From Coleofasciculus chthonoplastes F2-STO-03 (lineage in GTDB: Bacteria > Cyanobacteriota > Cyanobacteriia > Cyanobacteriales > Coleofasciculaceae), in contig JAVJWO010000120.1 in the NCBI GenBank assembly GCA_040222015.1, positions 1 through 33,311 on the forward strand: 33,311 bases of DNA. Direction: 5' to 3'. The translations under genes were made by a program, and so were the position numbers. The notes under the pieces were generated by a model that did no database searches, was not told the DNA's origin, and worked only from the letters and a program-made list of their open reading frames with translations. Positions 1,428 to 31,579 of this stretch are shown piece by piece. Every line of letters begins with the position of its first letter. Position 1 is the stretch's first letter.

Positions 1428-2669
1428 TCAATCCTGCAAGATTGTTTTGGACACAATCCGAGTTTTCTTGCGATCGGCGTCTGAGAGTTCTTCACCAGAT
1501 TGCAAACGAGTCGCGTTGGTTTGCAGAACCGTGGCGGCACTTTTATCTCCCATTTGGATTGCAGTATTAGCCGCCGTTTGTAACATTGTGGCAGCGCCAG
1601 AGCGATCGCCTGTTTGCAGTTTGGCTTCGGCGATTTGAGTTTGCCTGTATTTGGCTAATGCCAGAATCGATTGTTGGACTTTGGTATTGGGAGACGGTTG
1701 ATAGGTACTCTGAACGTTAATCTCGACGGGAACCTGTTCCGACTTTAACCCCTCTTCCCCTGTCGCGGGGTCATCATACCGCACTTGCAGCTTCGCGATC
1801 GCCTGATACCCAACAGACAGTTGTCCCATATACAGATTTGCCAGAATCACCCGTTCGGCATCAGTCATCAAATCGCCCAAGCGGACGACAAATTGATCAC
1901 CTTGGGGTTGCAGGGGGAGTTCAATCGTATCCGGGGCGACTTGGGCAATGGGTTTGAATTCGGCAAACCGCACACCATCCATTAATTCACATAATAAGTA
2001 AGCATTGGTCAAGCCAACGGCTTGGATACGGTTAAACAAGCGTCCAAACTCCTGCACCGCTTGCTCCGGCTGTTCAATATAAGAAAGCGTACCACTGCCC
2101 GAATCGGCAATTTTTTCTAGCACATCTTGGTTCCAACTTGCCCCAAATCCTAGGGTATTGATCGTCAGCTTATGCTCAACCGCGAATTGGGCTAATGTTA
2201 AGCAGCGATCATTGTCGCCATGTTCATTTTCGCCATCCGTGAGCAGAAACACCTGAGATACGGCGTCAGCTTTTCCCTTAGCTACTTCTGCAATCCCCAG
2301 TTTCAACCCCTCATCAATCGCCGTTCCCCCATCGGCAGAGAGTTGGCGGATTTGGGATTTAATTGTGTTCAGATTATCGATCGCTTGATTAGGAACCAAT
2401 ACTTTGGCACGATGATCAAAGGCAATCACACAGATGCGATCGCCCTCCTTGAGTCGTTCAATCAGTTGCATTGCCGCTTTTTTCACCGTTTCTAGGGGAC
2501 GCCCATGCATCGATCCACTGTGATCGAGAATTAAGCATAAATTCAGCGGCAGCGACTGATCCTCCGATTGGGTAATTGCCCGAATCGCGATCGATAACTG
2601 ACGCTGGGAACTGGGTTGATTGGCATCAAGATTGGTATCGCTGAGGGCAGGGTGTAAACCAACTTTCAT
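1428..2669 (-). CDS. VWA domain-containing protein
   Basis: MIDAS motif LILDHSGSM, GGT, LLTDGE. Likely start MKVGLHPALSD at 2669. Confidence 0.92.
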   Translation of the reverse strand: MKVGLHPALSDTNLDANQPSSQRQLSIAIRAITQSEDQSLPLNLCLILDHSGSMHGRPLETVKKAAMQLIERLKEGDRICVIAFDHRAKVLVPNQAIDNLNTIKSQIRQLSADGGTAIDEGLKLGIAEVAKGKADAVSQVFLLTDGENEHGDNDRCLTLAQFAVEHKLTINTLGFGASWNQDVLEKIADSGSGTLSYIEQPEQAVQEFGRLFNRIQAVGLTNAYLLCELMDGVRFAEFKPIAQVAPDTIELPLQPQGDQFVVRLGDLMTDAERVILANLYMGQLSVGYQAIAKLQVRYDDPATGEEGLKSEQVPVEINVQSTYQPSPNTKVQQSILALAKYRQTQIAEAKLQTGDRSGAATMLQTAANTAIQMGDKSAATVLQTNATRLQSGEELSDADRKKTRIVSKTILQD

Positions 2670-2861
2670 GTCTAAAACTCCTAAGCCAGTAATAAAGATG
2701 TAACTATAGTAACCTTGGCGTAATACATCTGTACTAATGAAGGCGTGAGGTGGTTCAGGATACACCCCGAATCGCCATCAATCAAAAGAACTACCCCAGG
2801 CAACTTCACAAGCACGCTACTATGTTTTAAAGATAGCGCCATTATTGCATTCCCGAGGATC

Positions 2862-3135
2862 GTCAGGAACCCCACGGCTATAAGCCGGGGGCTTGGAATT
2901 TAGCCCGTACCTGACCAGCCTAAGTGGATGGTGCACTACGTTAACGGCAAGCGTTGTAGAGACGCGCCATGGCGCGTCTGTACCTACCTTGGGATGCTCT
3001 AGAACCGAGTGGTTAAACAGGTGTACAAGGGTTAAGAAGCGTGCCACTTGGAAAGTACCGACCGTTAACTTATGCGAGGCTAACGTCACCCCAGCAATGG
3101 GAGTTAGGGGCAACCATACCCCAAAAACTAACCCT
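2862..3135 (+). ncRNA. HEARO/omegaRNA-like scaffold (degenerate)
   Basis: Ordered blocks typical of IscB-upstream RNAs: GACCAGCCTAAG, CTACGTT, CTACCTTGGGATGC, TCTAGAACC, GTTAAACAG, GCGAGGCTAAC. Pairings GTTAACGG/CCGTTAAC and CCGAGTGG/CCACTTGG are visible. The 3' boundary is approximate. Confidence 0.7.
2956..2983. repeat. 28-bp GTAG palindrome GTAGAGACGCGCCATGGCGCGTCT(G)TAC
   Basis: Near-perfect palindrome; family copies at 3233, 15923, 19209 and 31552. Confidence 0.9.
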
Positions 3136-3232
3136 TATGCGTACAGGTTGAAAACTTTGAGCTTGTAATTGCCCAAGCGAAAGACAAATGCAAGATGTCA
3201 CCGGAGCAAGTAAATCCAAGGCGGTAAGGGTC

Positions 3233-3260
3233 GTACAGACGCGCCATGGCGCGTCTCTAC
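3233..3260. repeat. 28-bp GTAG palindrome
   Basis: GTACAGACGCGCCATGGCGCGTCTCTAC. Confidence 0.9.
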
Positions 3261-3441
3261 AAATATCGCAGTCGTGTACACGGGAAATGGAGCCGATACA
3301 TTCTCCCTTGAGAGGAAGTCCTGTCAGACTGCTGTTTATGTAAGAGGGCTTGCTTCCGTTCGGCTGACGCTCACGGCGAAAGCATCCCCATACATAAATG
3401 ACAGGGGTTTCCATTCGCCCCCTTACCAACCCCAATTTATG

Positions 3442-4095
3442 ATGAAACGACCGATTCAGGCAGTTCAATCAACTTACTATGGTCGGCAAAACTACCGCAC
3501 CCCGCCACCGGATTTACCGTCACTGCTCCTTAATGAGCGGATTGTCTATCTGGGTTTGCCCTTGGTGCCGCAAGTTACCGAATTGATTGTGGCAGAACTT
3601 TTGTATTTGCAGTACGACAATCCCGATAAGCCGATTAAAATTTACATTAATTCCACGGGAACCTCCTACCAGGGTCAAACGATTGGCTTTGAAACAGAAG
3701 CCTTTGCCATCTCTGACACGATCAATTACATTCAACCTCCCATCCATACCATTTGTATTGGTTCGGCAATGGGGATGGCAGCGATGCTGCTGTCGGCGGG
3801 GACAAAAGGCTGTCGGGCAAGTTTACCCAATGCCTCAATTGTGCTGCACCAACCCAAGAGTTATGCCCAGGGTCAAGCCACGGATATTCAAATTCGGGCG
3901 AAAGAAGTGCTAGCTAACAAGACGACCATGTTGGATATTTTTGCCAAAAATACGGGTCAATCTGCTCAAAAGATTGCCAAGGACATGGAGCGGATGTTGT
4001 ACATGACTCCTCATGAGGCAAAAGAGTATGGCTTGATTGATCGCGTGTTAGAGAGCGATGAAGTGCCGGCTGCTATAGCCACCAGTGCGTCCTAA
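3442..4095 (+). CDS. clpR: Clp protease non-catalytic subunit ClpR
   Basis: RTPPPDLPSLLLNERIVYLG signature; catalytic Ser absent (SAMGMAA in place of AASMG); lies upstream of clpP. The ORF-track extension to 3274 is inside the inserted element; start is 3442 (or 3439). Confidence 0.92.
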   Translation: MKRPIQAVQSTYYGRQNYRTPPPDLPSLLLNERIVYLGLPLVPQVTELIVAELLYLQYDNPDKPIKIYINSTGTSYQGQTIGFETEAFAISDTINYIQPPIHTICIGSAMGMAAMLLSAGTKGCRASLPNASIVLHQPKSYAQGQATDIQIRAKEVLANKTTMLDIFAKNTGQSAQKIAKDMERMLYMTPHEAKEYGLIDRVLESDEVPAAIATSAS

Positions 4096-4216
4096 TCCCA
4101 ACTCTGGCACTCAAGGGTGAGTATTTGTGGTTCTGCTTCAGGACAAACATCCAGATTAATGCCTAAACCTACCCGGAGCAACTCAAAACCAGGTTCCCTT
4201 GAGCAAGCGCGTTGGG

Positions 4217-4275: not shown

Positions 4276-4872
4276 ATGCCTATTGGCACCCCCAGAGTCC
4301 CTTATCAACTTCCCGGTTCTCCTTACAGCGATTGGATTAACATCTACGATCGTCTCTACCGGGAACGGATTATTTTTCTGGGTAAAGAAGTCGATGATGA
4401 GATTACTAACCAGATCATCGCGGTGATGCTTTACCTGGATTCTGAAGACAACAACAAAGATATTTATCTGTACATCAATTCTCCTGGTGGTTCAGTTACC
4501 GCAGGCATGGCGATTTATGACACCATGCAGCATATCAAGTCGGATGTGGTGACCATCTGTGTCGGTTTAGCGGCGTCGATGGGGTCCTTCCTGCTGACGG
4601 CTGGGAAGCAGGGGAAACGGTTGGCGTTACCCCACTCGCGGATTATGATTCACCAACCCTCTGGGGGTGTGCGGGGACAAGCGACGGATATTGAGATTGA
4701 AGCCAGGGAGATTTTGCGAATCCGGCGTCAACTCAACCAAATCTACGCGGATAAGACGGGTCAAACGGTTGAGAAGATTGAAAAAGATATCGATCGCGAC
4801 TTTTTCATGTCCGCGCAAGAGGCGAAGGAATACGGACTGATTGACCGGGTGATTGAGGAACGAGCAAGTTAA
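4276..4872 (+). CDS. clpP: ATP-dependent Clp protease proteolytic subunit (ClpP3-type)
   Basis: [11 protein letters not shown]-terminus; triad motifs AASMG, IMIHQP, RDFFM; GGAG RBS. Confidence 0.96.
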
Positions 4873-15882: not shown

Positions 15883-15922
15883 GTTATAGCAACCGCCATG
15901 GCTGTTAGGACACATCATTTAT

Positions 15923-15950
15923 GTAGAGACGCGCCATGGCGCGTCTCTAC
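15923..15950. repeat. Perfect 28-bp GTAG palindrome between convergent genes
   Basis: GTAGAGACGCGCCATGGCGCGTCTCTAC. Confidence 0.92.
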
Positions 15951-15954
15951 ACGA

Positions 15955-31532: not shown

Positions 31533-31551
31533 AACACTATGTCCGACTAGT

Positions 31552-31579
31552 GTAGAGACGCGCCATGGCGCGTCTCTAC
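31552..31579. repeat. Perfect 28-bp GTAG palindrome touching the methyltransferase stop codon
   Basis: GTAGAGACGCGCCATGGCGCGTCTCTAC. Confidence 0.92.

Follow-up and report, generated by a model that had tools for sequence, protein, structure and literature searches.

A probable protein-less ISC-type element at the clpR start codon of Coleofasciculus chthonoplastes and an RNA module common to it and to group II introns

The 33,311-nucleotide (nt) contig JAVJWO010000120.1 of the cyanobacterium Coleofasciculus chthonoplastes F2-STO-03 (contig C120 of a 7.72-Mb genome, G000) was analysed at its full length and is referred to here as the window; coordinates are window positions unless a contig or locus is named. 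Positions 2862-3441 very probably hold a non-autonomous, protein-less (PATE-like) derivative of an IscB-encoding ISC transposon of the IS200/IS605 type, which inserted at the start codon of clpR and is decaying. The class of element, its termini and its ATGA target are already published, and this insertion is new yet ordinary for its class. What rises above the routine is the docking at start codons across the whole family, together with an uncatalogued structured RNA, named MID here, that is common to these elements and to group II introns.

An Rfam scan matched positions 2862-3089 of the plus strand to HEARO (RF02033) over the full model (1-211 of 211, 83.5 bits at a gathering score of 83, E = 1.2e-15) and gave no other match reaching the gathering score anywhere in the 33 kb; relaxing the thresholds for 2700-3600 brought nothing further on the plus strand. 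HEARO matches number 35 in G000, of which 26 exceed the cut-off. The copies begin with GTCA (GTAA in a few) and have unrelated upstream flanks, and because they begin alike while the flanks differ, position 2862 is a true element boundary. On the other side, the ten right ends aligned in G000 share ...CCCTTACCAACCCCAATTT / ...GGGGTTTCCATTCGCCCCCTTACCAACCCCAATTT, followed in all ten by ATGA and then by unrelated DNA. Three variable bases separate the common end from ATGA in nine of the ten copies, and nine bases do so in the tenth (C134); the three bases are TCG in six of the ten right ends, ATG in the window copy and ACG in its ortholog from the sister species G003. The element thus spans 580 bases, and its right edge adjoins the ATGA with which clpR starts. 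Its 5' terminus GTCA is present, its 3' terminus is ATG instead of ending in CG, and both ends carry subterminal hairpins, namely the omegaRNA P1 hairpin at the GTCA end and a long hairpin at about 3314-3412 (-23 kcal/mol with DNA folding parameters). An earlier reading of the window, made from its letters without database searches (the sequence-only reading), had proposed a protein-less HEARO/IscB-type element directly before the clpR start, bounded on the left by GTCA at 2862 and on the right by a hairpin, with the clpR start codon as insertion motif; the full-length covariance match, the 35 matches with unrelated flanks, the hairpin energy and the ATGA beside all ten right ends agree with it on each of these points.

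Between the omegaRNA and the right edge, the list of open reading frames (ORFs) holds no IscB (RRXRR-RuvC-HNH) ORF in 3090-3441 and none with family support inside the element, and contig C120 has no match to PF14239 or NF040563. Alignment with a full-length cognate element (G003:C189, locus L169) identifies 3263-3441 as the last ~140 nt of an IscB ORF, with its TAA stop, plus a 44-nt terminus. A test for a group II intron failed, with no match to RF00029 (domain V/VI) in 2700-3600 at E up to 1.

Window positions 2300-4100 were then searched against 40 related genomes, and the junctions were aligned. G005, G006 and G007 have an empty site, ...TTCCCRARGATC^ATGAAACGA, that is ...TTGCATTCCC(G/A)A(A/G)GATC^ATGAAACGACCG, with nothing between the flanks (^ marks the junction), and G008 has an empty clpR site behind a different leader. 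The junction predicted by the sequence-only reading, ...TTCCCGAGGATC^ATGAAACGA, is found exactly in G005, G006 and G007, with one flank base different in each, and the empty site it had anticipated in related strains exists in these three and in G008. G003 is occupied by an orthologous 537-bp element with the same unique internal sequence; over flanks and element, 564 of 617 positions are identical between G000 and G003 with 63 gap columns, and ~170 nt around MID (roughly 3063-3232) show 100% identity. These alignments indicate that the insertion is older than the G000/G003 split. At ten loci from other genera of the family, the leader ...CACGCTACTATGTTT(T)AAAGATAGCGCCATTATTGCAGCCCCAAACACC continues directly into the start codon, which is part of ATGA in nine and of ATGG in G015. 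The insertion therefore lies at N^ATGA without target-site duplication and has an empty orthologous site. G001, G002 and G004 carry at this site a ~120-nt remnant made of the first ~95 nt of the omegaRNA and ~30 nt from farther right, without the right end; it represents either what decay has left of the window insertion or an independent insertion at this ATGA. The left junction of the remnant (loci L093, L092 and L088 of G001, G002 and G004) is 5 nt shorter (..TTCCCCA^GTCAGG), and its short right piece derives from sequence to the right of MID.

Cyanobacterial ISC transposons have been described that have 5'-GTCA...CG-3' termini, insert at N^ATGA sites without duplicating them, are mobilised by a Y1 TnpA in trans and count protein-less PATEs among their derivatives (Kapitonov 2016, PMC4810608). 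In the available text of that paper, ISC1-1_MA of Microcystis aeruginosa resembles the window element in its GTCA start, in the CG end seen in siblings of the window copy, in its N^ATGA site, subterminal hairpins, trans TnpA and cyanobacterial host, and boundaries of this type were verified there, as here, through empty orthologous sites. Unlike ISC1-1_MA, the window element has no IscB or IsrB gene, its ORF is replaced by a 101-nt RNA and its terminus is TG. The Meers 2023 preprint describes PATEs whose omegaRNAs need a nuclease in trans, notes that the transposon end bounds the omegaRNA, and reports that IscB elements share the orientation of the gene upstream; according to Hirano 2022, which cites Altae-Tran 2021 for it, omegaRNAs that stand alone are functional with IscB, and the target-adjacent motif (TAM) of IsrB is NTGA (Hirano 2022). 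With such PATE-like elements and standalone omegaRNAs the window element has in common both ends and a guide-RNA gene, transposase and nuclease in trans and a flank-derived guide, whereas the available parts of Meers 2023 and Hirano 2022 mention neither a further RNA domain behind the omegaRNA nor docking at start codons. Relative to HEARO RF02033 itself, the model is matched in full length, but the window copy has no adjacent HNH/IscB ORF, one hairpin is deleted and a palindrome is inserted.

In IscB systems the guide lies 5' of the scaffold and the TAM lies 3' of the target. A guide taken from the clpR leader and a TAM provided by the clpR start, both proposed in the sequence-only reading, would fit this geometry. 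The 16-mer predicted as guide (2846-2861) occurs once in the window, and within G000 a single look-alike with three mismatches precedes an ATGA, on C173. This site (minus strand, approximate offset 7586) reads GGCATTCCCAAGGATG and then ATGA, with one mismatch adjoining the TAM, and is probably due to chance. A consensus scan, which is a weak test, detected neither a sigma-70-like promoter nor a terminator-like site on the plus strand within the element; clpR would therefore be transcribed through the element from the upstream leader (2810-2861), which probably contains the clpR promoter. Contigs from four metatranscriptome runs of three studies cover 2840-2895 (0 mismatches, leader to scaffold), 2995-3426 (1 mismatch) and 3409-3498 (0 mismatches, element to clpR); having no DNA control, they attest presence in the libraries and not strand, ends or level. 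In run X3, MID contigs have depths of 139-535x and a clpR-like contig one of 8.6x; neither these figures nor the stretches without cover are readable as levels. The same run contains a 78-nt contig (depth 67) in which the Illumina adapter is joined directly to position 2840, 22 nt 5' of the scaffold; this junction could be a common RNA end, either a transcription start site or the 5' end of the guide, but contigs cannot show ends.

These observations are consistent with the following course of events. A Y1 TnpA acting in trans would have inserted the element immediately 5' of the ATGA that starts clpR, without target duplication, and the insertion would have been inherited vertically since before G000 and G003 separated. 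Transcription from the clpR promoter would enter the element and produce the guide, copied from the clpR leader, together with the scaffold. After an excision, an IscB supplied in trans could cut the empty joint, TGCATTCCCGAGGATC^ATGA, so that the element would be restored from the copy on a sister chromosome, which would favour its retention. The same read-through transcript would encode clpR-clpP, and translation of clpR would start behind a C/A-rich transposon end without a Shine-Dalgarno sequence.

Docking at start codons was then analysed across the family. In 7 of 11 G000 copies, an ORF of 47 amino acids (aa) or more begins at the ATGA beside the right end. G000 and loci of eight other species of the genus (30 loci of 58 matches) together gave 38 sites, or 30 distinct right-end sites once orthologous flanks had been collapsed. 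ATGA lies within 12 nt at 28 of the 30, a frame of at least 47 aa is opened at 16 and one of at least 140 aa at 12; the background at the 67,767 ATGA sites of the genome, a generous null that includes in-frame intragenic sites and ignores purging of intragenic insertions, is 19.9% and 10.1%, respectively (binomial tails 4.9e-5 and 1.7e-5). Pfam families were found for 13 of the 16 docked ORFs. In several of them (UDP-glucose dehydrogenase, MnmA-type tRNA methyltransferase, PsbN and DUF751) the profile sets in at model position 1-2 within the first 5 residues, which marks these as true starts. Some of the misses are, by eye, insertions into 5' untranslated regions (UTRs), as in C215, 14 nt before an rpsO-like MALTQERK, and in C111, ~45 nt before an SDR-like start.

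Part of the start-codon excess, and this tells against a preference of the element, is purifying selection against intragenic insertions. As to the remaining excess, the guide lies outside the element, which suggests that only copies receiving read-in transcription would yield a useful guide RNA; this explanation draws on the known fact that IscB elements point the same way as the gene upstream of them (Meers 2023, in the text available). The elements sit by preference at ATGA start codons, in the orientation of the gene, and the likely reason is that the ORF stays intact there and the guide is sure of read-in transcription. No statement of start-codon docking was found in a literature search that extended neither to Altae-Tran 2021 and Weinberg 2009 nor to the supplementary figures of Meers 2023 and Kapitonov 2016, and the phrase "start codon" has 0 occurrences in Kapitonov 2016 (PMC4810608). 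Since the docked genes include the housekeeping genes clpR and psbN and an mnmA-like gene, the TAM, the need for read-in and the tolerance of the host would converge on gene starts, and structured RNAs of 0.5 kb would be reshaping host 5' UTRs. Across eight species, the start of this one essential gene has full, remnant and empty alleles, which makes the clpR locus a ready system for testing RNA-guided transposon retention in polyploid cyanobacteria.

The condition of the window copy was assessed against its G003 ortholog, whose omegaRNA scores 135.1 bits, so that the 83.5 bits of the G000 copy are 52 bits lower. Changes specific to G000 are a 28-nt palindromic repeat inserted in the omegaRNA (2954-2983), the deletion of a ~30-nt hairpin present beside this position in G003, a second copy of the palindrome (3233-3262), a further insertion, unique to this copy, within the right-end hairpin loop (~3355-3392), the terminal change from ACG to ATG, and the rewriting of a small omegaRNA hairpin at ~2884-2897 (GTGGATGGTGCAC, versus GACCTACGAGGTC in G003). 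The rewritten hairpin, in an element with ~170 identical nt, looks like patch-like conversion and not like point mutation. The mutated terminus also adds an extra in-frame ATG at 3439, upstream of the clpR start.

Regarding the supply of a nuclease, G000 has five IscB genes above the NCBIfam guided_IscB cut-off (C31, C77, C193, C12 and C214), each directly behind a HEARO copy, which accords with the siblings bearing iscB that had been expected in this genome; an element of the C77 type likewise ends in ...AG^ATGA. The window omegaRNA belongs to the subfamily that starts with GTCAGGAACCCC, in which IscB remnants survive in C5 (codons 1-34) and in C95 (codons 1-38 fused to 225-314). Cognate IscB elements are present in sister species (G003:C189 and G002:C39, 445 aa; G003:C195, 427 aa), with an omegaRNA that starts like that of the window and the same right end 44-101 nt past the stop. 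By these sequence comparisons, the cognate IscB, defined by omegaRNA subfamily and right end, is intact only in G002 and G003 and appears to have been lost in G000. A heterologous IscB of G000, for example of the C77 type, might conceivably serve the window copy. Matches to Y1_Tnp (PF01797) number 17 in G000, 16 of them above the cut-off. G000 also contains IscB fragments and RRXRR proteins without an HNH match; six of the latter, of 351-447 aa (C178:89892, C216:111694, C179:45659, C162:35690, C103:8250 and C170:52166), align with the IscB model over its N-terminal ~160 positions alone and are likely IsrB-type nickases, and a weak HEARO-like match (39.8 bits) lies just upstream of the RRXRR gene on C170.

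Given three nested insertions, a deleted hairpin, the change of the terminus from CG to TG and the loss of the cognate IscB, the window copy is probably a decaying passenger in G000. The same facts, with the score 52 bits below that of the ortholog and the ~120-nt remnants in G001, G002 and G004, would also suit a wholly inert relic, a dead insertion with neither guide nor mobility that merely lengthens the clpR leader and persists since precise loss is rare. We regard this as a serious possibility, though somewhat short of an even one: the ~170 nt around MID are 100% identical between G000 and G003 against 564 of 617 overall with 63 gap columns, the HEARO model is still matched end to end, five IscB genes remain in G000, of which the C77 type at least ends in ...AG^ATGA, and RNA-library contigs cover the element. 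Several points nevertheless weigh against a copy that still takes part in guided retention. Its HEARO score exceeds the cut-off by 0.5 bit only; the terminal change from CG to TG may block excision; the members of the GTCAGGAACCCC subfamily listed in G000 have no intact IscB; the window omegaRNA has no BLASTN-level similarity to the omegaRNAs of the five intact IscB genes; no TnpA with matching ends was identified; the RNA contigs have the limits given above; and harmless decay of the insertion is evident from the remnants in G001, G002 and G004.

It is very unlikely that the element has become a domesticated leader, kept by host selection as a regulatory 5' UTR of clpR-clpP. Its location, with a conserved leader on one side and the first codon of a conserved protease operon on the other, its retention in two species with long invariant stretches and the same docking at many other genes could be taken in this sense. 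Yet four species of the genus have empty sites and three have a remnant only, so clpR does not need the element; docking is a family property seen at unrelated genes, a better fit to transposon biology, and Rfam gave no match to a riboswitch or leader family. A decaying, non-autonomous ISC derivative thus remains our preferred reading of 2862-3441.

Within this derivative, the slot of the IscB ORF is occupied by MID (3130-3230, 101 nt), in which a closing helix and a three-way junction support two hairpins. Comparison of 24 of the 26 above-cut-off copies (two cut by contig ends were omitted) revealed that in IscB-bearing copies the IscB start codon comes directly behind the terminal hairpin of the omegaRNA, which is the first of the two small hairpins past the Rfam model end (CCCAGCAATGGG), and that ten protein-less G000 copies, spanning three omegaRNA subfamilies, have a ~100-nt MID block there. 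The string ATG CGT ACA GGT TGA at 3137-3151, where the sequence-only reading had placed the beginning of the nuclease ORF, must be explained differently: sibling IscB genes start at an ATG ~25 nt past the model end, and the 3137 string is part of the conserved 5' strand of MID. The mini-ORF it encodes ("MRTG*") was accordingly rejected as a nuclease remnant. The sequence-only reading had recognised neither MID nor the IscB 3' end within 3263-3441.

The MID structure is supported by covariation. RNAalifold on 16 copies found two-sided changes at 13 of 32 pairs. A covariance model, R1, detected 13 copies in G000 and, among 121 genomes sampled from the order, full-length matches in 28, which represent 20 of 72 genera; on the window it scores 110.1 bits at 3130-3230, a match by construction since this copy is a seed member, and on independent copies 41-121 bits. 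Among 36 R1-aligned matches, 93.9% of cells pair, compared with 68.0% in shuffled alignments and 33-50% with slid partners, the latter being the fairer control since an alignment fitted to R1 favours the structure; 22 of 24 pairs show two-sided changes, and 0 of 500 shuffles reached any of five measures. Two-sided changes also occur among the HEARO-context MIDs of G000 (GCTTG/CAAGC versus GTCTG/CAGAC), and MID stands behind several omegaRNA subfamilies in many genera.

Other identities for MID were tried and dropped. It is not a 3' extension of the omegaRNA of IscB loci, as a search with R1 at E up to 0.01 came back empty for all 31 loci of the genus that encode IscB. It is not a known RNA family, as Rfam 15 at E up to 1 returned nothing but a 17.6-bit chance match on the opposite strand, and ARAGORN found no tRNA-like gene in it. 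The G000 copies on C56, C40 and C195 were rejected as introns, since neither RF00029 nor HEARO matched them at E up to 0.01; inspection by eye shows IS-type elements, C40 with a degenerate GTCAAC start and C56 with an end ...TTTTTTTGAG^ATGA. The MID copy on C56 (16650-16749, 74 bits) stands behind a 5' RNA not recognised as HEARO, and C56 may be a third type of guide-RNA element with MID. In the literature, no intron-like domain behind HEARO was found described, with Altae-Tran 2021, Weinberg 2009 and supplementary figures lying outside the search.

The context of MID was examined at one locus from each of 26 other genomes. A HEARO context was found at 14 (9 by Rfam, 3 by motif and 2 by eye), usually with a hairpin end and ATGA within 43-123 nt and often, by eye, with a plausible protein start (MNIFSKLRDFVG..., MIKILVVEDE..., MKTEAFSELFPLF...); one further locus, L156, is a probable HEARO-type element with an unclear 5' part. 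At eleven loci HEARO is missing, and a group II intron domain V/VI follows MID on its strand at a distance of 57-137 nt. Six of these intron calls rest on RF00029, one has MID inside the RF00029 match, and four were made by motif or by eye, the motif-only calls being weaker since the loose domain-V motif also fired in one HEARO locus (L149). A GTGYG stands 615-731 nt upstream of MID in the intron loci, and in the folds MID is part of a large domain whose closing helix runs from ~546-558 nt past GTGYG to 3-4 nt before domain V. From these single-sequence minimum free energy folds and GTGYG distances, the best reading is that MID sits in intron domain IV. At L148 (G090, locus positions ~1463-1673) MID comes after domain V and before the 3' strand of domain VI, in the apical loop of domain VI, so that it behaves like an insertable peripheral domain. 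At L155 (G101), a reverse-transcriptase-like ORF (MSNTLSNQMVEWNKVDWRKLEIRVYKLQKRIF...) begins 251 nt past the start of MID and 16 nt past domain VI of the MID-bearing, ORF-less intron, possibly forming a twintron.

In ORF-containing group II introns, the loop of domain IV holds the protein ORF (Zimmerly and Semper 2015, PMC4424553). The MID of introns is homologous to that of the window (58-88 bits with R1) and probably occupies this domain-IV slot; the window element has no domain V/VI or other intron part and is not an intron. ORF-less group II introns reliant on an intron-encoded protein in trans, as the available part of PMC4424553 describes them, are likewise ORF-less mobile elements needing trans factors. 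On comparative grounds, MID thus appears to be a self-contained domain that two kinds of mobile elements without an ORF carry in their periphery, at the spot where each has lost its protein gene. A partial parallel is the IStron, a group I intron fused to a TnpB insertion sequence (IS) element (review PMC13565253), which also combines on one transcript an IS200/IS605-family element with its guide RNA and a second structured RNA of intron origin. As IStrons are presented in the part of that review available, the window element differs in that its second RNA is a single peripheral domain of a group II intron and not a whole ribozyme, with no sign of splicing.

Whether MID does something for the element is a balanced question: we put it at about even that it has a function at the RNA level, such as stabilising the 3' end of the omegaRNA or insulating it from the host mRNA, or acting as a processing site or a protein dock. 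As one case of this, a docking site for a factor common to introns is unlikely. Equally unlikely, though of wider reach, is that MID is a portable, self-folding module that recruits or uses a trans factor or processes the transcript both in ORF-less IscB-type transposons and in group II introns. Candidate roles would be docking of an intron-encoded maturase/reverse transcriptase or another shared protein, and a self-cleaving or end-protecting RNA that splits the omegaRNA from the host mRNA. If true, such a module would physically link group II introns with the transposons ancestral to Cas9 and would explain how the elements can occupy start codons of essential genes. MID might instead be functionless debris of a group II intron once inserted in an IscB element, and the scatter of intron-context copies between two HEARO clades, on a weak backbone, lends this some colour, as does a word common to MID and the 3' part of IscB (described below), which could by eye be a recombination scar. 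We consider debris doubtful, as two-sided changes maintain the structure among HEARO-context copies, 36 copies keep 93.9% of cells paired with two-sided changes at 22 of 24 pairs, and MID has been kept behind several omegaRNA subfamilies and in many genera. In the tree of the 36 copies (102 columns), contexts cluster beyond chance, with intron copies between the two HEARO clades; its backbone is unsupported (19 of 33 inner branches open) and favours neither direction of transfer between intron and transposon. The word in question, TCCAAGGC, is present in the 3' strand of MID (3222-3232, ..AATCCAAGGCGGTA..) and in the IscB coding sequence of L169 (..TAGTCCAAGGCATTAG..), ~130 nt before its stop, and may be a microhomology junction from the replacement of the ORF by MID. 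As it stands, MID is a covariation-supported RNA without a catalogue entry that occurs in roughly one in four genomes sampled from the order, and it offers a testable connection between two large classes of mobile elements built on RNA.

Table 1. Parts of the element and adjoining features in the window.
Feature	Positions	Strand	Basis or remark
Native clpR leader, family-conserved (CACGCTACTATGTTTTAAAGATAGCGCCATTATTGCA...)	2810..2861	+	Conserved in loci of 17 relatives
Predicted omegaRNA guide (last 16-22 nt of leader)	2840/2846-2861	+	Inferred role
omegaRNA scaffold (HEARO, RF02033), canonical "RE" end of the IS200/IS605-type element	2862..3089	+	Rfam model
Palindromic dispersed repeat, copy 1 (GTAGAGACGCGCCATGGCGCGTCTGTAC)	2954..2983	.	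Within omegaRNA hairpin region; missing in G003 ortholog
Two small hairpins past the Rfam model end (CCCAGCAATGGG, GGGGCAACCATACCCC)	3090..3129	+	24 copies compared
MID, 101-nt structured RNA in the IscB ORF slot	3130..3230	+	Model R1, 110.1 bits
Palindromic repeat, copy 2, orientation opposite to copy 1	3233..3262	.	Missing in G003 ortholog
Right end (canonical "LE"): IscB ORF remnant, hairpin ~3314-3412, terminus ...CCCCAATTT+ATG	3263..3441	+	Alignment with L169
Lineage-specific insertion in right-end hairpin loop	3355..3392	.	Missing in G003
ATGA: target motif, predicted TAM, clpR start	3442..3445	+	10 right ends, empty sites
clpR	3442..4095	+	PF00574 (CLP_protease), 1.5e-56
clpP paralog, presumed clpR-clpP operon	4276..4872	+	ORF list; AASMG Ser motif in alignment

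The clpR product has 217 aa; aligned to the ClpP paralog encoded downstream, it has Gly where that paralog has its catalytic Ser, and it contains a ClpR-type insertion. BLAST of the 3355-3392 insertion against the genome returned the insertion itself and one 17-nt match, with no further full copy. The palindromic repeat is 28-30 nt long, a perfect palindrome with core GACGCGCCATGGCGCGTC; allowing up to 3 mismatches, the genome contains 151 copies, and the exact core occurs 146 times. Beyond the two copies in the element, the window holds it at 15922-15951 and 31551-31579. It resembles the small dispersed repeats of filamentous cyanobacteria, and it nests repeatedly in HEARO elements (C48, C49, C95, C40 and the window copy). 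In the window copy it stands beside the deleted native hairpin, and the Rfam alignment takes the palindrome as that hairpin.

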